From assembly GCA_021737945.1 (NCBI GenBank), contig JAIPCX010000012.1, positions 6,665 to 70,664 of the forward strand: a DNA stretch of 64,000 bases. The letters are read 5' to 3'. This document shows, piece by piece, positions 882 through 50,667 of the stretch. The position numbers and the translations under genes are program-made. The stretch's first letter is position 1; each line of letters starts with the position of its first letter. The notes below the pieces were generated by a model. The model was not told where the DNA came from. It saw only the letters and a program-made list of their open reading frames with translations, and searched no databases. This DNA is from Polynucleobacter sp. GTDB taxonomy: Bacteria; Pseudomonadota; Gammaproteobacteria; Burkholderiales; Burkholderiaceae_D.

Positions 882-2111
882 TCAGGGTGCATTGACCAAA
901 GCGGGTATCTGTAGATATCCGCGAAACCTCACGCGACCACCACGTCGGGGTGAGCCAGCTAAAGCGTAGTTGGGAAAACGCTTGATGAAGCGTCCGATCG
1001 CGATTTGTCCTTCCAGCCGTGCCAGACTCATACCAGCGCAAGCGTGGGTACCACTGGCGAATGCCAGATGACGATTCGGTGTGCGTGCTATATCGAAAAT
1101 CTCTGGATCATTAAATTGAGAAGGATCACGATTTGCCGCACCAATACACAACGTGACTCGCGTTTGGGGTGGCATGGTAATACCACCGACCTCAACCGTC
1201 TCGGTGGTGATGCGATTGCCGAGTTGATTCGAGCTTTCAAAACGCAGCATTTCTTCGACAGCTAATTTGATTAAGTCGGGTTGCTTTAGTAATTGCTCGC
1301 GTTGGCTTGTATATTCAGCTAAACAAACTAAGCCATTACCAATCAAATTGGTTGTGGTTTCGTGACCCGCATTAAGCAAAAAAATACAATTGTGAATGAG
1401 CTCTTTGGGGCTGAGTTTTTCTCCATCGGCTTCACCGAGTATGAGTCGGGTTAACACATCGATTTCTGGATTGCCTGGATTGGCACGGCGCCGCGCTATC
1501 AGATCGTTCAGGTAGTTGATAAATTCAGTCACAGCGCGATTACCGCGTTCAGCCACATCGGTACTCAAAACAGGTTCAAGCGCGCCTAATATGGCTAATG
1601 ACCATTCGCGCAAGGGGCCTCGTTCATCAACGGGCACATCTAGCAAATTACCTATTACCTCAATCGGTATTGCGGATGCAAAGTCTTCGATCAAATCGAC
1701 ATCACGTTTGTCTTCCATGCGGTCTAGCAGGGTATCCACCAAGCGTATCAATCCGTTTTCCATGCCCGCGATGGCACGTGGGGTAAGTGCACCTGAGATT
1801 AATTTTCGAACACGCGTGTGCAAAGGTGGATCAGAAAATACCAAACTCGTAGTGTGATGCTCATACAGAGGCGAGTTGCCGTACTTGGGCTTAAATTCCA
1901 GTTTTTTATCCGAGCTGAAGCTCTTAGGATTTTTGTAGATCGCCACTAGATCGTCGTAGCGGGTTAAGAAGTAGCTGCCGTCCCCCATGGGCTTTACTGG
2001 TGCGTGTTCGCGCAAAGCCCGATAGATGGGGTAGGGGTTGTCGTGAAATCCGCTGGGTAAATGCGATAGCTCGAAGGTCTCTGCAATCTGCTCAGCGTGG
2101 TTCGTGCTCAT
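882..2111 (-). CDS. cytochrome P450 (class I bacterial type), no adjacent ferredoxin or reductase
   Basis: 409 aa. It has the heme-thiolate loop FASGTHACAGMSL (FxxGxHxCxG), an I-helix AGHETT and an ExxR motif (EEMLR). Confidence 0.9.
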   Translation of the reverse strand: MSTNHAEQIAETFELSHLPSGFHDNPYPIYRALREHAPVKPMGDGSYFLTRYDDLVAIYKNPKSFSSDKKLEFKPKYGNSPLYEHHTTSLVFSDPPLHTRVRKLISGALTPRAIAGMENGLIRLVDTLLDRMEDKRDVDLIEDFASAIPIEVIGNLLDVPVDERGPLREWSLAILGALEPVLSTDVAERGNRAVTEFINYLNDLIARRRANPGNPEIDVLTRLILGEADGEKLSPKELIHNCIFLLNAGHETTTNLIGNGLVCLAEYTSQREQLLKQPDLIKLAVEEMLRFESSNQLGNRITTETVEVGGITMPPQTRVTLCIGAANRDPSQFNDPEIFDIARTPNRHLAFASGTHACAGMSLARLEGQIAIGRFIKRFPNYALAGSPRRGGRVRFRGYLQIPALVNAP

Positions 2112-2214
2112 TGAATAATTCGCTAGGGATGGTGCCCCGAATTATAGGCTGCGTCTGGAGGCGTCTATCGTTGCGTTGATGGGAAATGAATTATCAATAA
2201 AATAATTTCGAACA

Positions 2215-2247
2215 TAAAAAAAGACGACCTCTTGGCCGTCTTTTTCT
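2215..2247 (-). terminator. intrinsic terminator downstream of pqqA (bidirectional-looking hairpin)
   Basis: The minus strand reads AAGACGGCC-AAGA-GGTCGTCTT followed by TTTTTT. That is a 9-bp stem with one G-U pair. The plus strand also has a T-run after the hairpin. Confidence 0.6.
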
Positions 2248-2297
2248 AAAAACCCTTGAAGCAGCCAACCTTGCGGTAAGGCTGCTAACCATCCGAA

Positions 2298-2372
2298 TTA
2301 ACGGTTGGCGATGTACATTGTGATTTCGAAACCAAAACGCAGATCGGTTGCTGCTGGTGTAGTCCAGTTCAT
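2298..2372 (-). CDS. pqqA: PqqA-type peptide (pyrroloquinoline quinone precursor family), 24 codons
   Basis: Hand translation of the minus strand gives [28 protein letters not shown] lies 6 nt upstream of the ATG. The peptide matches the PqqA pattern W-x-x-P-A-x-x-D-L-R-x-G-x-E-x-T-x-Y (compare Pseudomonas [23 protein letters not shown]), including the Glu and Tyr that form PQQ. It is too short to appear in the ORF track. Confidence 0.85.
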
Positions 2373-2702
2373 AGCCATCTCCCAGTTGATGTTAATTATT
2401 AAATCGCTAAGCCAAGGGTTGGTCTAGCGAAGTGAATAATGCCTGTGAGTCACATCTAAGGCATCTGCGAAACGCTGAATTGCATCTAATGATTTTCATG
2501 AACCCGCAGGATGCTACCCGAAAGACAGTGCATAGACAGCGGTGGGTAAAAGCCTGCTGCTATGATGCATTCCACTCAATGCCTGTAAGTGATTAAAGGC
2601 GCCCACTGGATTTATGTTGCGCAGCATCAAAAAATGACTCTTCATTCTACTCCCGAAGCTTATCCCTCCGAGGCAGAGTTTTCTGCGTCTGGTAGTCGTG
2701 TC

Positions 2703-4067
2703 ATGAGCTTGCGCATGAAGATCAATCTGGTGTTCTCGGTGCTGACGTTTCTTTTGTTTGCCATTTTGATTGTGGTGCAGGTCGTAGGTACGCGAAATAG
2801 CGTGCGCGAAGAAATGGAAGCTTCCGGACGAATTGCTACGCAGTTATTAACGCGGATCAGTAGTTTTTATTCGCAAAATGATTTGCCGGGCATGATTAAT
2901 TTTTTGAGTAATACCGGTCGTGTGCGTGCTAATGATATTCGTCTTTATGATCAGAGCAACCACCTGCTGTATCAATCACCGCCGTCAATTTATAAAGCGG
3001 GCCGTAATGCACCGGAGTGGTATGCCGCGTTAGTCGCTCCATCTGACAACGAACGAGTGATTCAGATGTCCAATGCGCGGCTTGTTATTCAAACCAATCC
3101 AACGCGCGCGGTGCTCGATGGTTGGGATAACTTGCTTGATATATTGTTTGCTGAGCTGATCTTATTTTTGTTGGCCGACTTGTTGATTCTCTGGTTAGTG
3201 GGACGCTGGCTTGAACCTTTAGAAAAAGTGCAGCACGGTTTGCGCGAGTTGGGGCAGGGAGATCACAAAGTACGTTTGCCGCCACTCCCTGGTAAAGAAG
3301 CGGGTGAAATGGGCCGTGCGTTTAATCGTATGGCACAAGCAGTGGAAGATAACATTCAGGTCAGACAAGCTAGTGCGGAAGCGCAGGCCAGACTAGACGC
3401 GCAACGTGATTTTACAAAATTATTACATGCCCGTATCGAAGAAGAGCGCGCTGCCTTAGCGCTTGAGCTGCATGATGAGCTAGGTCAATCGCTGACTGCT
3501 ATACGCAGTATTGCTAAATCCTTGATGCAGCATCCGAATGTGGCGGGCAGCCCGATAGAGCAGCATGCAAATATGTTGTTTGATACCGCAGGCATGACAT
3601 CCGATGCTATGCACAGAATGATTCCTCGATTGCGCCCTATCAAACTTGAAGGTATGGGCTTGGTCGATGCCGTGCGCGATTTATTGACGCAGAGTAAGCA
3701 AAACACTCCGAATCTGCGTTTGGATTTAGCCGTTAGGGGTGAGTTGTCTGCCATAGCTGATGAGCTGGAATTAACGGCATACCGTATAGTGCAAGAAGCC
3801 GTGACGAATATTATTCGGCATGCTCAGGCTAGTCGTGCGCATGTAACGATTGAAGTGAGAGAAGGGCAGCTTCATTTATCCATTGCTGACAATGGCATTG
3901 GCGCGCAAACACTTAAGCGCGATGGTCATTACGGTGTGCGTGGTATGCAAGAGCGAGCAGAGTCGCATGGAGGAATGATTGATTTCAGACCTTCAAAAGA
4001 AGGTGGGCTAGAAGTGCAGGTGGTTTTTCCGTTGAAGCAAAGTAGTCAAGAGAGTGGCAAAGAATGA
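2703..4067 (+). CDS. sensor histidine kinase, NarX/UhpB-like (HisKA_3 family)
   Basis: ORF 2589..4067. I chose ATG 2703 (MSLRMKINLVF...) just before the first TM helix, but the start is uncertain. There are two TM segments and a HAMP-like linker. The H-box is LELHDELGQSLTAI and the ATPase boxes are EAVTNIIRHA and DNGIG. Confidence 0.85.
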   Translation: MSLRMKINLVFSVLTFLLFAILIVVQVVGTRNSVREEMEASGRIATQLLTRISSFYSQNDLPGMINFLSNTGRVRANDIRLYDQSNHLLYQSPPSIYKAGRNAPEWYAALVAPSDNERVIQMSNARLVIQTNPTRAVLDGWDNLLDILFAELILFLLADLLILWLVGRWLEPLEKVQHGLRELGQGDHKVRLPPLPGKEAGEMGRAFNRMAQAVEDNIQVRQASAEAQARLDAQRDFTKLLHARIEEERAALALELHDELGQSLTAIRSIAKSLMQHPNVAGSPIEQHANMLFDTAGMTSDAMHRMIPRLRPIKLEGMGLVDAVRDLLTQSKQNTPNLRLDLAVRGELSAIADELELTAYRIVQEAVTNIIRHAQASRAHVTIEVREGQLHLSIADNGIGAQTLKRDGHYGVRGMQERAESHGGMIDFRPSKEGGLEVQVVFPLKQSSQESGKE

Positions 4068-4705
4068 AAACTCCGATCAATGTCATGCTGGTTGATGATC
4101 ACGCCGTGGTACGTTTTGGATTCCGCATGCTGTTAGATGCGACAGAGGATATACGCGTGGTTGCCGAGGCTGAGTCTGCTGAGATAGCTTACCAGCTTAT
4201 TCCTACGGCTAAGCCGGATGTCATTGTGATGGACATATCGCTGGGTGGCACCATGGGTGTCGAAGCGACTCGACGTATCGTGGCGCGCGACAAGATGGCA
4301 CGAGTGTTAGGTTTGTCTTCGCATGAAGACCCAAGCTATGTGCGCTACATGTTAAAAGCCGGTGCGCTCGGTTATCTGTCAAAACGTAGTGCGCCTGATG
4401 AACTCATGCACGCCATTCGTCAAGTTGCCGAAGGGCGCATGTACATTGATAGTCAGCTTTCGCAGCGCATGGCACTAGAAGAATTCAACGGTGAAAAAAG
4501 TCCGATTGAAGTTTTATCCGAAAGAGAATTTGGCGTTTTCATTCAACTTGCCAAAGGATCTTCCGTCAATCAAATTGCTGAAATGCTAAATATTTCACCG
4601 CGTACTGTTGGTACTCATTTGTATAACGTTAAACAAAAATTGGGCGTAGCCAATCAGGCAGAGTTAGCGCTGATAGCGGTGCGACATGGGTTGATTGAGC
4701 TGTAG
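4064..4705 (+). CDS. response regulator, NarL/FixJ family (receiver + LuxR-type HTH)
   Basis: An ATGA overlap with the kinase stop suggests translational coupling. The receiver has MLVDDH and VIVMDISL. The C-terminal HTH is SEREFGVFIQLAKGSSVNQIAEMLNISPRTVGTHLYNV. Confidence 0.9.
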   Translation: MKTPINVMLVDDHAVVRFGFRMLLDATEDIRVVAEAESAEIAYQLIPTAKPDVIVMDISLGGTMGVEATRRIVARDKMARVLGLSSHEDPSYVRYMLKAGALGYLSKRSAPDELMHAIRQVAEGRMYIDSQLSQRMALEEFNGEKSPIEVLSEREFGVFIQLAKGSSVNQIAEMLNISPRTVGTHLYNVKQKLGVANQAELALIAVRHGLIEL

Positions 4706-25921: not shown

Positions 25922-26063
25922 GTTTCGTGTCGCGTTGTTTAATTAAGTGACGAATCTGAACATTGATATTGATCAGAGTTCGTATTGGACAAGTTGTGAA
26001 TTTCATAAGTGCCGTCCGGTTGAGATCGATCAACTAAGATTCTGTGCGCTATCATTCAGACTT

Positions 26064-26465
26064 ATGAGCACCGAAAATTCAAATGAACATAGCCTGTATG
26101 AGCTGATTGGTGGGGATGCCCAGCTGCGAATGCTTGTTGACCGTTTTTATGACTTGATGGATTTAGAGCCCGAGTTCAAATCGCTGCGTGCGATGCATCC
26201 TGCTACGCTTGATGGTTCGCGTGATAAGTTGTATTTTTTCTTGTCCGGTTGGATGGGTGGCCCTGATTTATATACGCCACGCTTTGGTAATGCGTTTCTT
26301 CGAGCTCGACATTTACCATTTAAGATAGCCAGTCAAGAACGCGACGAATGGTTAACGTGCATGCTGCTGGCGATGCGGGATTTGAACTACAGCGAAGCAA
26401 CGCAGGATATCTTGCTTAATGGCTTGTTTGGTACGGCAGACTGGATGAGGAACTCACCCGGTTAG
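26064..26465 (+). CDS. glbO: group II truncated hemoglobin
   Basis: From ATG 26064 the protein reads MSTENSNEHSLYELIGGDAQLRMLVDRFYDLM...MHP...FLSGWMGGP...RH. This is typical trHbO-type sequence. The track ORF begins earlier at GTG 25947. Confidence 0.8.
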   Translation: MSTENSNEHSLYELIGGDAQLRMLVDRFYDLMDLEPEFKSLRAMHPATLDGSRDKLYFFLSGWMGGPDLYTPRFGNAFLRARHLPFKIASQERDEWLTCMLLAMRDLNYSEATQDILLNGLFGTADWMRNSPG

Positions 26466-26478
26466 ATTAGCAAGTACT

Positions 26479-27762
26479 TTAGATAAAACCATCAAAGGCT
26501 AAGACAGAGACAAGCTCACCTGCAGCGACGTCGCTTTGATTATGATCTAAAACCACCATGCAGTTAGCTTCCGACATGGAGCTAAGAATCCCCGAGCCTT
26601 GCGCACCGGTTAGCGTGACATGTTGTGTACCGCTGGTGTCTGTCGAAAGAATGGCGCGCTGATACTCAGTCCGCCCCGGTTTTTTTCGTATGGCATGCGT
26701 GCTGGCGACCTTGAGTAAGTTTTGTGTGTGTGGCTTTGTACCCATGAGCTCATAGATCGCATCGCGCGCCAAAAAATAGAATGTCGCCATGACGGCGACA
26801 GGATTTCCCGGCAATCCAAACAATAGCGCAGTACGTCCATCGCACTGAATTTTTCCAAAGGCCATAGGCCGACCGGGGCGCATGGCAATTTTGCAAAACA
26901 ATACTTCGCCTAGCCGCGCCATCATTTGTCGCGTGTAATCGGCGTCACCGGCGGATACCCCGCCGGTGGTGATGATTACATCGGCTTGTGCGCAGGCTTC
27001 ACGCAAGGTTTTTTCTAATGAGGCAGGATTGTCTTTCACCACACCCATATCAATCGGCTCGCACTGCGCGCGCACTAACATGCTGTGCAAAGTGTAGCGG
27101 TTGCTGTCATACACGCAGCCTTCATCGAGGGCTTGACCGATGGAACGTAGCTCGTCGCCAGTAGAAAAAAACGCGACGCGTGGCCGACGAATGACAGCGA
27201 TGTTGGCGATACCTAACGAAGCCAGTAAACCGATATCAGCAGGGGACAAGCGTTTTCCTTTGCGAAGTGCGACTGATCCTAAGCGCAGATCTTCGCCGGC
27301 CAGTCGGCGGTTGTCACCAGCATTCACTGTGCTCGGCGCAATACTGATGTGCGTATCGGTCGCATCACTGACTAACTCTTGCGCAATGACAGTATCGCAG
27401 CCGCGAGGAATGGCTGCGCCTGTCATGATGCGCACGCATTCACCTGATCGAACTTCATTTAGATACGGATGACCCGCGTAGGCTTTGCCAACAACGTTTA
27501 ACTTCGTAGATTTATTTAATAGGTCAGTCGCTATAAAGGCATAGCCATCCATAGCGGAATTATCATACGAGGGTACGTTGATAGGGGAGATGACATCCTG
27601 CGCAAGCACGCGCCCCAGCGTCTGTTTTAATGGCAGAGTTTCAGTTTCATTTAGCGGCGTAACACAGCGAGCTATAACCTGCTGAAGGATTTCAACTGGC
27701 AGATCGTGCTGATCGTTACCAGTGAGTAGATCAGATAGATCGGGAAGAATGGCTTGAGACAT
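26479..27762 (-). CDS. moeA: molybdopterin molybdotransferase
   Basis: 427 aa with MoeA-type sequence (SPINVPSYDNSAMDGYA, TTGGVSAGDADY). It is adjacent to moaA. Confidence 0.9.
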   Translation of the reverse strand: MSQAILPDLSDLLTGNDQHDLPVEILQQVIARCVTPLNETETLPLKQTLGRVLAQDVISPINVPSYDNSAMDGYAFIATDLLNKSTKLNVVGKAYAGHPYLNEVRSGECVRIMTGAAIPRGCDTVIAQELVSDATDTHISIAPSTVNAGDNRRLAGEDLRLGSVALRKGKRLSPADIGLLASLGIANIAVIRRPRVAFFSTGDELRSIGQALDEGCVYDSNRYTLHSMLVRAQCEPIDMGVVKDNPASLEKTLREACAQADVIITTGGVSAGDADYTRQMMARLGEVLFCKIAMRPGRPMAFGKIQCDGRTALLFGLPGNPVAVMATFYFLARDAIYELMGTKPHTQNLLKVASTHAIRKKPGRTEYQRAILSTDTSGTQHVTLTGAQGSGILSSMSEANCMVVLDHNQSDVAAGELVSVLAFDGFI

Positions 27763-27774
27763 TCGCGTGTCGGC

Positions 27775-28890
27775 TTAGCCGCCGATATACGACATTTCAA
27801 CTTTACGATCGCTGCGTGACAAGCCTTCAGTATTGATAGTGCGTAGTTCGGAGTACCGATCATCGCGCTTAGCCCACAGATGAGAAACAGCCGCGGTGAT
27901 TTCAGCATCGCTGTGCCCGTTGCGCAGTAGTGCACGTAAATCATGGCCGCCGGTGGCAAACAAACAGGTGAAGAGTTTGCCTTCGGTTGAAAGACGAGCC
28001 CGATTGCAATCACTACAGAATGCTTGAGTCACGCTAGAGATAACGCCGATTTCGCCGCTGCCATCGGTATAGCGCCAACGTTCGGCAGTCTCGCCGGTGT
28101 AGTTGGCATCAACGACTTCCAGTGGCATCGATTCACTGATACGTCGCACCACTTCGGCTGATGGAATGACTTCGTCCATTTTCCAGCCGTTTGATGCGCC
28201 AACATCCATGTATTCGATAAAGCGCAAGATGACGTCGCTGCCTTTGAAGTGGCGCGCCATGGGAACGATTTCTTGATCGTTCATGCCACCTTTAACCACC
28301 ATATTGACTTTGATCGGGCCGAGTCCGACTTGGCTGGCAACGTCAATGCCGTCGAGCACATCGGTAACGGGGAAATCGACATCATTCATACGTTTGAAGG
28401 TGGCGTCGTCGAGTGAATCGAGCGAGACGGTGACGCGTTTTAGGCCAGCATCTTTAAGTGACTGTGCTTTTTTCCCCAGCAATGACGCGTTAGTGGTCAT
28501 AGTGAGATCGAGTGGCTTGCCATCAACGGTGGTCAGCACAGCCAACATTTCGATCAGCTTTTCTATATTTTTTCGCAGTAGCGGTTCACCGCCGGTCAAA
28601 CGAATTTTTTCTACGCCATGCGCAATAAAAATTTTCGCGATGCGCGTAATTTCTTCAAACGACAGCAGGGAGCTGTGCGGTAAAAATTGATAGCTGGTGT
28701 CGAATACTTCTTTCGGCATGCAGTACACGCAGCGAAAGTTGCAGCGGTCGGTCACAGAGATACGCAAATCGCGCAAAGGTCGGCTGAGCGTGTCCGACAG
28801 CAAACCGTTAGCAGGCGTCAGTACGTCTGGAATATGGGGCACGGCATGCAGATATCGCAGGTCGGCTACGGGAATGATGCGCTCGGTCAT
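27775..28890 (-). CDS. moaA: GTP 3',8-cyclase (molybdenum cofactor biosynthesis protein A)
   Basis: The radical-SAM motif [10 protein letters not shown] is present. A C-terminal second cluster motif [18 protein letters not shown] is also present. Confidence 0.92.
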
Positions 28891-49170: not shown

Positions 49171-49536
49171 TTGGCAGATTCAAATCAAAGCGGATGTTTG
49201 ACGGTGGGCGAGGGTGTTGTTTTGAATGGCACATTCGTAGTGCCCGATATCGCGTCTGTATCCGGCAGCATTGAAGGTGAAATTACTGCAAGGGAACTTA
49301 TTGTTGCTAGCTCTGGCGTGATTAAGGGTAAAGTGACTGCAGATATTATTGATCTGCGTGGTGAAATTCATGACACGCTGACAGCCAAAAAATCGCTGTT
49401 TATTCGTTCGACTGGCAAGGCACTAGGATCTGTGCAATACGCAGAGATTGAAATCGAGAAGGGCGGCGATCTGCAAGGTTCGCTGCAGAAGATCGACGGA
49501 GATGGTAGCCCTTCCACGTCCTCTGGCTCCAACTGA
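49171..49536 (+). CDS. bactofilin family protein
   Basis: 121 aa with a TTG start and GGGAGG 5 nt upstream. The beta-helical repeat sequence (GVVLNGTFVV..SVSGSIEGEITARELIVASSGVIKGKVTADIIDLRGEI...) is typical of DUF583/bactofilin. Confidence 0.8.
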   Translation: MADSNQSGCLTVGEGVVLNGTFVVPDIASVSGSIEGEITARELIVASSGVIKGKVTADIIDLRGEIHDTLTAKKSLFIRSTGKALGSVQYAEIEIEKGGDLQGSLQKIDGDGSPSTSSGSN

Positions 49537-49552
49537 CTTAGAGGGTTGACAC

Positions 49553-50038
49553 GTGTTCAACAAAAGACGAAACGACGAGAGGGACAAACCAGAAGCCTCT
49601 ATCACTGAGGCGAGTCCCGAACCTAACGAGCCTGTCATTCAGGTGGATCCGGATATGCTTGTTTCCGATCCTGATACAGCCCAGTATGCAAACGGTAACG
49701 GCGGTGTTGCAAAACCTTCCGTGAATAACCTCAAGCCATCGATCATTAGTGAAGGCTTCGAGTTCATTGGTGAAATTCGCTCCAGTGGTTATCTGACCAT
49801 CGACGGCACCGTACGCGGCACCTTGTCTCTGCACTCTATCCAGATCGGTGTATCCGGTGTTTTGGATGGTAATGTGACGTGCGACACGATGAACGTCAAA
49901 GGTAATTTCTCAGGCGCACTGGACTGCCGTGATCTCACGATCGGCAGCCGAGCCGTGGTAGATGGCAAAGTAAGCTTCAAGAGCATTACCATCCAACGAG
50001 GTGGTGTGGTCAAGGGCGAGCTCAAGAAAAAGCCTTAA
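49553..50038 (+). CDS. bactofilin family protein with disordered N-terminal extension
   Basis: 161 aa with a GTG start and GAGGG 7 nt upstream. The bactofilin core is IGEIRSSGYLTIDGTVRGTLSLHSIQIGVSGVLDGNVTCDTMNVKGNFSGAL... Confidence 0.8.
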   Translation: MFNKRRNDERDKPEASITEASPEPNEPVIQVDPDMLVSDPDTAQYANGNGGVAKPSVNNLKPSIISEGFEFIGEIRSSGYLTIDGTVRGTLSLHSIQIGVSGVLDGNVTCDTMNVKGNFSGALDCRDLTIGSRAVVDGKVSFKSITIQRGGVVKGELKKKP

Positions 50039-50059
50039 CCAGACGTCAGATCTAAAATT

Positions 50060-50090
50060 AAAAAGCCGCCTTCAAGGGCGGCTTTTTTTG
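50060..50090. terminator. bidirectional intrinsic terminator between convergent bactofilin genes
   Basis: AAAAAGCCGCC-TTCAAG-GGCGGCTTTTTTT, with an A-run on the left and a T-run on the right. Confidence 0.85.
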
Positions 50091-50115
50091 TCTGAATTTT
50101 TAAGAATTTATTGTC

Positions 50116-50547
50116 TTATTTCTTCTCTTGAGCCAATTTGATGACCGCTTGTGCATCGGTTGCTGTAGTGGCATTGTTTTGAGTCTGAATTACTAAGCCC
50201 AATAGTTTCGCGCCATGTTCTACACCGATGGTGCCGTAGGTAATGTCGCCACGAACTTCAGAGTCTTTATGAAACTCAGCGCGTTCGGTCGCGTAAATAT
50301 TACCTTCGATTTTGCCAGCCACCATTACTCTGTGCGCAGTGACATCTCCCGATACTTCGCCTGAGCGCCCAATCGCTACGGTTACTTTTTTATCTTTGGC
50401 AGTCTCAATGTTACCAACGACTTTACCATCGATTCTGACGCTATCGAGCAGTACCAGTCGACCATAAATCTCCGTGGTCGCACCAATCAGGGTGTCAAAT
50501 TTTTCCTGAGTGGGTAGTAACTTGTTTTGTTTCATCTTGCGGAACAT
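50116..50547 (-). CDS. bactofilin family protein
   Basis: Start ATG 50547 (MFRKMKQNK...) has GGAGAG upstream. The core is GRLVLLDSVRIDGKVVGNIE...GEVSGDVTAHRVMVAGKIEGNIYATERAEFHKDSEVRGDITYGTIGVEHGAKL. Confidence 0.85.
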   Translation of the reverse strand: MFRKMKQNKLLPTQEKFDTLIGATTEIYGRLVLLDSVRIDGKVVGNIETAKDKKVTVAIGRSGEVSGDVTAHRVMVAGKIEGNIYATERAEFHKDSEVRGDITYGTIGVEHGAKLLGLVIQTQNNATTATDAQAVIKLAQEKK

Positions 50548-50667
50548 CGCACTCTCCATTGCACTGGTCGCGCAGCTATTAATACCTGCAATATAACGCG
50601 ATCCTGGCTGGGCCGACTTGGTATTTTTTGAGACCTGATCCGGTGGCTTTGACCAGCTGTAGCCGGA

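Follow-up and report, generated by a model that had tools for sequence, protein, structure and literature searches.

The window, as the whole 64-kb stretch of DNA analysed here is called, belongs in this analysis to Pernthalerella, a genus of freshwater Burkholderiaceae, and it carries a stand-alone pqqA gene that probably works in a regulated unit with a two-component system, the peptide being converted by PqqB-E enzymes encoded elsewhere. This reading draws on the identity of the peptide, the selection acting on it, its synteny among relatives, an operator in front of it and a pair of hairpins behind it (Table 1). The elements that the original prediction had picked out from the letters of the DNA were recovered: a 24-residue PqqA with its E-x-x-x-Y pair on the minus strand, GGAG 6 nt before its ATG, a cytochrome P450 with an intact heme loop 186 nt downstream on the same strand (ATG at 2111), two hairpins between these genes and a divergent two-component system.

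Table 1 Features of the pqqA locus, with positions counted from the first letter of the window
Feature	Position	Strand	Basis or remark
Cytochrome P450, 409 aa, CYP107-like	882..2111	-	PF00067; FASGTHACAG, AGHETT
TATAAT, perfect; candidate promoter for the P450 alone	2141..2146	-	30 nt 5' of the P450 ATG
Intrinsic terminator/attenuator GACGGCC-AAGA-GGTCGTC, then T7	2215..2247	-	Folding
First hairpin after pqqA, AGCAGCC..ACC GCAA GGT.GGCTGCT	2260..2286	-	Folding
pqqA coding sequence, 24 codons and stop	2298..2372	-	Direct reading; PF08042 and TIGR02107; substitution pattern
Shine-Dalgarno GGAG, 6 nt 5' of the ATG at 2372	2379..2382	-	Direct reading; (A)GGAG invariant in 18 divergent lineages
Stem-loop CGCTAG...CTTAGCG in the presumed pqqA 5' leader	2405..2429	-	3' of the conserved CATTAT (2436-2441)
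Candidate operator TTCATGAAAATCATTAG, hexamers TCATGA/TCATTA 3 nt apart	2486..2502	-	About 115-130 nt 5' of the pqqA ATG
Sensor histidine kinase, HAMP + HisKA_3 + HATPase_c	2589..4067	+	Pfam
NarL/LuxR-type response regulator, Response_reg + GerE; candidate binder of the box	4064..4705	+	Pfam

A conserved and typical PqqA

Read directly, the gene runs from an ATG at 2372 to a stop codon at 2300-2298 and encodes a 24-residue peptide in which E16-I-T-M-Y20 forms the E-x-x-x-Y pair. The peptide scores above the cut-offs of both PqqA models, Pfam PF08042 (39.8 bits, cut-off 21.1) and TIGR02107 (39.3 bits, cut-off 20), and shares 22 of 24 residues with the PqqA of the Burkholderia multivorans pqqABCDE operon; it is a typical Burkholderiales PqqA. 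A second in-frame ATG at 2378, immediately 3' of the GGAG, is confined to the lineage of the window, so that the 24-residue peptide represents the conserved form. The gene had been described as unannotated, yet NCBI already annotates the identical peptide as PqqA in several MAG records.

The seven variants of pqqA within the genus differ by synonymous changes only. Among 26 distinct orphan pqqA coding sequences, change at the codons left free by the search pattern is likewise almost entirely synonymous, and replacements amount to position 2 (A, T or N) and one T5P. This pattern shows purifying selection on pqqA. While a gene so short and so far from pqqBCDE could in principle be a chance reading frame, or a pseudogene decaying after loss of a pqq operon, such an origin is exceedingly improbable: the peptide passes curated cut-offs, its ribosome-binding site is conserved, and the nearly exclusive synonymous change across lineages with a GC content of 0.41-0.67 contradicts decay. 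The pqqA of the window is a real, strongly conserved PqqA gene, which probably functions as a stand-alone unit.

Leader, candidate operator and hairpins

The candidate operator follows the consensus TCATGA-N3-TCATKA, the core of which is invariant in an alignment of 18 lineages, and it has a single match in the 64 kb. A box at the same offset is found in 61 of 69 orphan loci linked to the two-component system and in 18 of 32 orphan loci in other contexts; it also occurs in canonical pqqABCDE loci linked to the same system, and a second copy precedes pqqU in 12 loci. We infer that the response regulator binds the box in front of pqqA. Closer to the gene, the stem-loop of the presumed leader varies in sequence, and its complementary arms recur at this position in the 18-lineage alignment, as judged by eye. 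On inspection by eye, the GG/GC spacing 5' of pqqA does not suit a sigma-54 promoter, and this possibility was dismissed.

Behind pqqA, the two hairpins and the T7 run fold with -39.7 kcal/mol (z = -6.75). Of 40 distinct lineages, at least 35 have a first hairpin, its arms differing yet staying complementary, and a hairpin followed by a T-run lies 3' of pqqA in all 40, the double hairpin being kept through covarying sequence. In the stem of the terminator, a G in the window gives a G.U pair where relatives have A-U. Rfam returned no match for the pqqA region, and a consensus promoter and terminator scanner reported neither the pqqA terminator nor the -10 box of the P450, which were called from folding and alignment; the -10 box was missed because no -35 hexamer fits. 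The terminator had been taken as an argument for independent or attenuated transcription. Yet a similar hairpin and T-run stands between pqqA and pqqB of the canonical operon in L034, and the terminator alone is therefore no proof that the downstream gene is independent.

The divergent two-component system

The start of the histidine kinase is placed about 45 nt later by other gene callers, giving a protein of 477 aa. Its set of HAMP, HisKA_3 and HATPase_c domains was matched in 16 of 16 orthologues, and its periplasmic domain is weakly LapD/MoxY-like: LapD_MoxY_N was detected in 8 of the 16 (best E = 1e-4) and stays under the Pfam cut-off in the kinase of the window itself. The response regulator is 97-100% identical within the genus, 88-96% across other lineages (GC 0.41-0.67) and 77-79% to those relatives in which it faces pqqABCDE.

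HisKA_3/LuxR-type systems control PQQ-dependent alcohol oxidation, as with ExaDE/EraSR and PedS2-PedR2 in Pseudomonas and MoxY/MoxX and MxaY in methylotrophs. The system described here has the same classes of kinase and regulator, a weakly MoxY-like periplasmic domain and an adjoining PQQ gene. It differs in that its NCBIfam scores, far below the cut-offs, show no orthology, and in that its proposed targets are pqqA and pqqU instead of a gene for a dehydrogenase.

Synteny among relatives and the importer gene pqqU

The comparison set comprised 120 metagenome loci that encode the same PqqA core. The divergent HisKA_3/NarL system is the conserved neighbour of pqqA at 69 of these loci, the kinase orthologues mostly showing 64-75% identity. 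Where the downstream sequence is long enough (51 of the two-component-linked loci), the next gene after pqqA is pqqU in 35 cases, a P450 in 7 and rmuC in 4. By gene order, the conserved partner of pqqA is the sensor-regulator pair, joined in relatives by a PQQ importer gene, and not the P450.

The protein in the pqqU slot matches Escherichia coli PqqU (YncD), the TonB-dependent PQQ importer, with E = 1e-132 (6v81, 9c4o). In all 31 full-length homologues, phenylalanine stands at the position of Y99 and both R304 and R365 are present, in keeping with the signature binding residues given for PqqU in the accessible text of PMC12124388, namely an aromatic residue at Y99, R304 and R365; the NCBIfam score of the homologue is 541 bits, under the equivalog cut-off of 1200. 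Related loci carry this full-length homologue behind pqqA, whereas the window is without pqqU. The same text describes four Burkholderiales genomes in which pqqU adjoins the complete biosynthesis operon; an isolated pqqA with pqqU behind it and a divergent two-component system is not among the arrangements it reports. In PLSDB, no close relative of the unit of two-component system, pqqA and pqqU was found, the PqqU matches being 35-39% identical.

In more distant relatives, the same two-component system faces a full pqqABCDE operon, with the same box in front of it (L160, L181, L029 and L048). In the first two, FtsX, globin, RmuC, response regulator and histidine kinase are followed by pqqABCDE, encoded on the other strand, and farther along by MoeA. 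The window has globin directly adjoining MoeA. The locus thus resembles a canonical one in its peptide family and in the hairpin and T-run right after pqqA, as in L034, and is unlike it in lacking pqqB, pqqC, pqqD and pqqE, both at the locus and throughout the 74 kb examined.

The cytochrome P450 next to pqqA

P450-cross-linked RiPPs such as biarylitides, cittilins and atropopeptides arise from loci in which a tiny gene for an aromatic-rich peptide precedes a co-directional P450 gene. The resemblance of the locus in both respects had led to the suggestion that pqqA and the P450 form a precursor-enzyme pair, in which the P450 cross-links or oxidises the aromatic residues of a PqqA-like peptide to a new product. 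This suggestion now seems very unlikely. Throughout the genus, the two genes are indeed read in one direction across a gap of 186 nt, they are directly adjacent in a second lineage of GC ~0.54 (L055, L110, L117, L127, L145), and a P450 follows pqqU by ~65-110 nt in four further loci (L042, L052, L068, L098); read-through would also be compatible with the hairpin-terminator, which precedes pqqB in canonical operons as well. However, the P450 is missing from most loci with an identical PqqA, two-component system and box, and no change in PqqA correlates with its presence, the peptide being the same with or without it. The adjacency is not kept with the peptide, which is an unmodified canonical PqqA in contrast to the RiPP precursors.

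The P450 itself points in the same direction. Its closest solved relatives are BioI (2e-73), followed by CYP267B1, PksS, Vdh and EryF, that is, CYP107-like enzymes acting on small molecules. No RiPP P450 was among the best 60 matches to solved relatives, and the RiPP P450 model ApyO gave 55 bits against a cut-off of 525, so that the enzyme is not close to any RiPP P450 tested. Recurrence of PqqA mini-genes beside orthologues of the enzyme had been proposed as a check; P450 orthologues sharing 64-68% identity have GST, SDR and DUF188 genes as neighbours, and no peptide gene adjoins them. Between the two genes of the window lie a terminator and the TATAAT box, which is invariant in the seven genus variants while its flanking bases vary, and no operator box precedes the P450. 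At pqqA loci of relatives, the P450 is patchy yet present in several lineages; where the sequence extends far enough (21 loci), it stands behind pqqU in 3. Gene order and upstream signals suggest that the P450 is a neighbour outside the conserved pqqA unit.

Where the biosynthesis enzymes may be encoded

The absence of pqqB, pqqC, pqqD and pqqE from the 64-kb window, as originally predicted, was borne out by Pfam searches of all larger ORFs, and it extends over 10 kb beyond; tblastn with B. multivorans PqqB-E gave MoaA (27775-28890, 24% identity) as the sole match in the window. PqqC searches seeded with L034 and P0209 were taken to the best 120 hits each, reaching relatives down to ~74% identity. 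Among the matches listed, no microdiverse PqqC block could be assigned to Pernthalerella, despite the great abundance of the genus in the database; as these are the best 120 of each search, absence from the genus is not established by them. The listed matches contain two large blocks, clusters 34 and 36. Cluster 36 was rejected as the Pernthalerella PqqC, since it derives from sewage and includes, as its named member, an Alcaligenaceae MAG. Cluster 34 (GC 0.51) is the sole candidate block among these matches and is found in samples that also contain Pernthalerella; with a tetranucleotide correlation of 0.82 to the window and 0.87 to L023, it is neither cleanly joined to the genus nor cleanly separated from it, the references being 0.91 for held-out Pernthalerella DNA and 0.89 for another genus. 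A 1.2-Mb Pernthalerella contig holds none of the PqqC variants listed. In the literature, no statement on PQQ in Pernthalerella was found, and the term 'PQQ' is absent from the supplementary files.

Two readings meet at this point. It is possible, if less probable than conversion by PqqB-E encoded elsewhere, that Pernthalerella, and perhaps many lineages with the two-component system, pqqA and pqqU, are PQQ scavengers without pqqBCDE that have kept a translated and perfectly conserved PqqA and its regulator for a role other than PQQ synthesis in the cell, possibly as a leader regulating the downstream gene, as a signalling peptide or as a precursor processed by other enzymes. Put for the genus alone, one may tentatively picture Pernthalerella without any pqqBCDE; its residue-for-residue conserved PqqA, with a sensor-regulator pair and operator of its own, might then serve as substrate for the P450 that came to stand where pqqB or pqqU would be, might act in signalling or regulation, or might be matured by enzymes of another kind or by other organisms. 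The importer gene has replaced pqqBCDE at the locus in most lineages, PQQ biosynthesis genes occur in only 23% of PqqU-encoding genomes according to the accessible text of PMC12124388, and some 100 orphan loci at GC 0.5-0.65 have no canonical operon of matching composition, all of which would fit scavenging, as would the lack of a PqqC assignable to the genus among the matches listed. On the other hand, a canonical PqqA is under purifying selection at each of its residues, among them the ones required for PqqD and PqqE to recognise it, and retention without these enzymes is therefore hard to explain. Some lineages also appear to keep two identical box-bearing copies of pqqA, suggesting demand for the peptide. 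Finally, in a sister lineage of GC 0.43, the orphan unit appears to coexist with a separate pqqABCDE operon, a pairing based on their occurrence in the same metagenome, on NCBI accessions 1267 apart and on the best tetranucleotide match.

Conversion of the peptide by enzymes encoded elsewhere would have precedents. Stand-alone extra copies of pqqA are documented in PQQ producers: strain FJNU-6 has five, one in pqqABCDE, one in pqqADE and three separate, of which one is among the most highly expressed (PMC9851590), and Methylovorus sp. MP688 is a further case (Ge et al. 2015, as cited in PMC9851590). The original prediction had offered a spare pqqA copy as its other explanation. With a typical peptide under purifying selection and such copies on record, the detachment of the gene from its operon is supported; the word spare is not, as the gene has a conserved partner in the divergent two-component system and an invariant operator. 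Like the methylotroph copies, it is a canonical PqqA gene away from pqqBCDE with its own transcription signals. Unlike them, it is linked to an invariant operator and a two-component system of its own, and in most relatives to pqqU, and the operon that would use the peptide was not found for Pernthalerella in the window or among the PqqC matches listed.

A proposed regulated unit for PQQ supply

In the favoured explanation, PqqA would be the ribosomal precursor whose Glu16 and Tyr20 become PQQ, and we infer that PqqB-E elsewhere in the genome make PQQ from it. The gene would form a regulated unit with its own leader, a palindromic operator ~125 nt upstream, the divergent pair of HisKA_3 kinase and NarL-type regulator, for which this operator is the most likely target, and the double hairpin, whose terminal terminator may let a short pqqA transcript accumulate. 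In the ancestral arrangement, this two-component system would have stood opposite a complete pqqABCDE operon; pqqBCDE would then have left the locus in a broad group of freshwater Burkholderiaceae, and the slot behind pqqA would have been taken by pqqU in most lineages, while in Pernthalerella it holds the CYP107-like P450, probably a patchy neighbour with its own -10 box.

The regulatory mechanism of PQQ supply has been called unclear (PMC9851590). The locus and its relatives point to a testable regulon, in which one conserved NarL-type regulator and its kinase would be combined with a single invariant operator, found before pqqA, before full pqq operons in some relatives and before pqqU in many others. 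If this regulon is true, PQQ synthesis and scavenging would be under one control. If, instead, PqqA persists in abundant lake bacteria that lack PqqB-E, its textbook role as a PQQ precursor only would have to be revised.

The pqqA gene and its organism

The window, which corresponds to JGI contig Ga0164294_10000082, comes from Pernthalerella, a freshwater genus that is very abundant in lake metagenomes, with the exact window regulator protein present in 460 blocks of the collection. By P450, the closest named genome is isolate MsE-6 (95% P450 identity), which the supplement of PMC12381374 gives as Pernthalerella communis (Burkholderiaceae; GTDB genus SYFN01) with Paucimonas lemoignei as its nearest cultured relative. 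Two different Pernthalerella contigs of JGI metagenome 3300071517, Ga0620987_00035 (1.22 Mb) and Ga0620987_00064 (0.68 Mb), both span the locus region, so this sample contains two or more coexisting strains. Elsewhere in the window, past the thrS, infC, rpmI, rplT, pheS, pheT operon on its downstream side, three consecutive genes encode bactofilin domains and have an M23 peptidase gene beside them.

The small gene originally predicted to encode a PqqA peptide is a genuine pqqA under selection. It reads ATG AAC TGG ... CGT TAA, its ATG lies 6 nt past a GGAG Shine-Dalgarno sequence, and its product carries the E16/Y20 pair and scores above the cut-offs of both PqqA models, Pfam (39.8 vs 21.1 bits) and TIGR02107 (39.3 vs 20 bits). 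The gene is unannotated as read in the window, but the identical peptide is already called PqqA in NCBI records of several MAGs. Seven genus variants differ by synonymous changes only. Across 26 distinct orphan pqqA coding sequences, the codons free of the search pattern (3-5 and 21-24) show two to four synonymous codons each, and replacements are limited to position 2 (A/T/N) and one T5P. With codon variation thus near-exclusively synonymous, the peptide is translated and its sequence matters. The absence of pqqB, pqqC, pqqD and pqqE from the window also held when the larger ORFs were checked by protein families; their sole radical-SAM protein is MoaA, which was likewise the only match (24% identity) when the window was searched by tblastn with the four Burkholderia multivorans enzymes (PqqB-E).

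Features of the window
Feature	Position	Strand	Remark
AT-rich element TTATTGATAATTCATTT	2184-2200	minus	between pqqA terminator and P450 -10 box
pqqA	2372-2298	minus	
Shine-Dalgarno GGAG	2382-2379	minus	
Operator box	2486-2502		single occurrence in 64 kb
Globin gene	25947-26465		
moeA	26479-27762		directly adjoins globin gene
Globin-moeA site	25947-27762		putative former site of block
Bactofilin-domain genes	49171-50559		three in a row

A conserved two-component system facing pqqA

As originally described, a two-component system is transcribed divergently from pqqA; it consists of a HAMP/HisKA_3 kinase and a NarL-type regulator. Scanning metagenomes with a degenerate pattern for the PqqA peptide core gave at least 120 loci, classed by tblastn. 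Among the 120 listed, an orthologue of the window kinase is divergent from pqqA with the regulator behind it in 69; the others comprise 32 orphan pqqA genes in different surroundings, 11 canonical loci (pqqA then pqqB) and 8 loci lacking upstream sequence. The 69 two-component-linked loci span GC 0.41 to 0.67; their kinases are 64-75% identical in most, and the regulator is 88-96% identical in other lineages. Where at least 700 nt follow (51 of these loci), the next gene encodes a TonB-dependent receptor of ~700 aa in 35, the P450 in 7, a convergent rmuC in 4 and something else in 5. The conserved unit is therefore regulator plus kinase facing pqqA. The periplasmic part of the kinase has weak recurring LapD/MoxY matches in 8 of 16 orthologues (best E = 1e-4), the window copy falling below the cut-off.

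The receptor behind pqqA is homologous to PqqU. Its entire length aligns with E. coli YncD/PqqU (6v81, 9c4o; E = 1e-132), and among NCBIfam families PqqU ranks far ahead (541 bits vs 174 for the next), at a score below the equivalog cut-off of 1200. The importer signature given in PMC12124388, an aromatic residue at Y99 together with R304 and R365, is kept in all 31 full-length copies. The same source reports biosynthesis genes in only 23% of genomes with PqqU, and, for four Burkholderiales genomes, a pqqU that adjoins the whole biosynthesis operon; the passages covered make no mention of a solitary pqqA with pqqU behind it.

Other orphan contexts were also seen. At GC 0.53-0.56 (L032, L033, L036, L037, L047, L051, L090, L092, L105 and similar loci), a FAD-dependent oxidoreductase gene (DAO family) is divergent from pqqA on its upstream side; downstream come genes for a 147-aa protein rich in Cys and for one of 296 aa without family match, and after them a gene with a SET domain. 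These loci have the box, and their peptide is that of the two-component-linked copy in lineages of similar GC; NCBI accessions 948 apart suggest that both copies share one MAG. At GC 0.38-0.41 (L031, L063, L064, L075), an orphan pqqA is followed by genes for a 163-aa protein without family match and DUF932. Because DUF932 genes often ride on mobile elements, pqqA may sometimes travel on them. Replicons of Paraburkholderia sp. PGU19 and P. caribensis MBA4 (L026, L027) each have two pqqA places. They carry a pqqA that equals the B. multivorans one and has just pqqD behind it, pqqB, pqqC and pqqE being absent within 7 kb; this resembles the pqqADE operon of a methylotroph (PMC9851590) and the pqqA 'fragment' in bug-symbiont islands (PMC9088363).

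Candidate operator and RNA elements

Alignment of the kinase-pqqA spacer from 18 divergent lineages revealed an invariant GTTCATGAAWWTCATKAG box, two TCATGA-like hexamers spaced by 3 nt, ~115-130 nt ahead of the pqqA ATG. The spacer also holds conserved CATKAT and AGGAG motifs and a stem-loop whose arms change and stay complementary; within the genus (seven variants), a stretch of ~100 nt upstream of pqqA is strongly conserved. The box occurs at the same offset in 61 of the 69 two-component-linked loci, in 18 of the 32 orphan loci of other contexts and in the canonical two-component-linked operons L029, L048, L089, L133, L160 and L181. A very conserved regulator beside an invariant box suggests that the NarL-type protein binds this candidate operator. 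Twelve loci (L042, L045, L068, L076, L081, L083, L098, L104, L119, L124, L137, L141) have a second box between pqqA and pqqU, apparently an operator copy for the importer gene itself. This second TCATGAWWWTCATKA box lies ~210-240 nt past the point where the pqqA core begins and immediately ahead of pqqU.

The two predicted hairpins were found in the 106 nt 3' of the pqqA stop, the second followed by T7 (fold -39.7 kcal/mol, z = -6.75), and are kept across the seven genus variants, the window alone having one A-U pair changed to G.U. A hairpin with an immediate T-run follows pqqA in 40/40 distinct 3' flanks, at least 35 of which have the extra upstream hairpin, with arms that vary by lineage and complementarity that is kept. 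The terminator had been taken to argue for independent or attenuated transcription; however, a hairpin with T-run also lies between pqqA and pqqB in the canonical L034 operon, so the element by itself does not uncouple a downstream gene. In Methylobacterium extorquens, pqqA transcripts reportedly stand in high ratio to pqqB-E, which the element fits.

The P450 as a neighbour

The P450 (409 aa; motifs FASGTHACAG and AGHETT) is indeed the next gene on the pqqA strand, 186 nt downstream, and all close relatives, to a P450 identity as low as 86%, keep pqqA upstream of it. The original prediction offered the two as a possible precursor/enzyme RiPP pair. Yet the best solved relatives are BioI (2e-73), CYP267B1, PksS, Vdh and EryF, with no RiPP P450 among the best 60, and the RiPP P450 model ApyO scores 55 bits vs a cut-off of 525. 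The P450 has an invariant TATAAT 30 nt ahead of its ATG (seven genus variants) and no operator box, and PqqA is identical whether the P450 is present or absent. The RiPP pairing is therefore not supported and is unlikely. Near P450 orthologues at 64-68% identity in other Proteobacteria no PqqA-like ORF was found, and GST, SDR, DUF188 and pyridine-nucleotide oxidoreductase genes adjoin them. In L042, L052, L068 and L098, the P450 stands behind the receptor gene (gap roughly 65-110 nt). Judged from these neighbourhoods, the P450 is a patchily distributed passenger with rmuC on one side and pqqA (or the receptor) on the other, older than the genus and absent from most lineages.

The conserved element TTATTGATAATTCATTT, present twice in L020, agrees by eye with the 19-bp Fur-box consensus at ~12/19 positions. 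Genes for an FTR1-type iron permease and for a cupredoxin stand immediately past rmuC in locus L001.

Ancestral arrangement and biosynthesis genes

L160, a MAG contig (GC 0.54) reached via its PqqC match, encodes FtsX, globin, RmuC, regulator and kinase, followed by an oppositely oriented pqqA-pqqBCDE and, farther along, by MoeA; the L160 regulator and kinase are 79% and 52% identical to those of the window. L181 (Actimicrobium/IMCC9480 group) has the same layout, and the more distant operons L029, L048 and L099 have a related two-component system in front. The block of rmuC, two-component system and pqqABCDE thus sits between globin and moeA in L160 and L181. In the window these two genes abut, so the block has moved and pqqBCDE is no longer with it; the junction is the putative site from which it was moved in Pernthalerella.

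Elsewhere in its genomes, the genus probably has pqqBCDE, a view held with modest confidence. In its favour, a sister lineage (GC 0.43) appears to have both the two-component system, pqqA and pqqU unit (L039, L062, L135) and a pqqABCDE operon whose PqqA differs at the N-terminus (L034, L070); the two sets of loci come from a common metagenome, with NCBI accessions 1267 apart, and are each other's best tetranucleotide partners. Some lineages seem to have two identical box-bearing pqqA copies, and a PQQ producer with multiple pqqA genes, stand-alone ones included, has been described (PMC9851590). Against it, PqqC searches down to ~74% identity gave, among the matches listed, only two large microdiverse blocks, one of them from sewage samples. 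The other block, cluster 34 (GC 0.51), is the one candidate for the genus; it has a soluble PQQ-dependent sugar dehydrogenase gene beside it and co-occurs with Pernthalerella, including long contigs in JGI 3300071517. Its tetranucleotide correlation (0.82 with the window, 0.87 with the comparison locus L023) is below that of held-out Pernthalerella DNA (0.91) and does not exceed that of another genus (0.89). The pqqABCDE operons of two groups, one abundant in freshwater (GC 0.51) and one from sewage (GC 0.52), L161-L166 and L150-L159, adjoin genes for a soluble PQQ-dependent sugar dehydrogenase (GSDH) and cytochrome c, with neither box nor two-component system.

The window pqqA is best read as part of a putative PQQ-supply regulon, comprising the two-component system, the operator and pqqA, joined in relatives by pqqU, and the P450 is a neighbour of this regulon.
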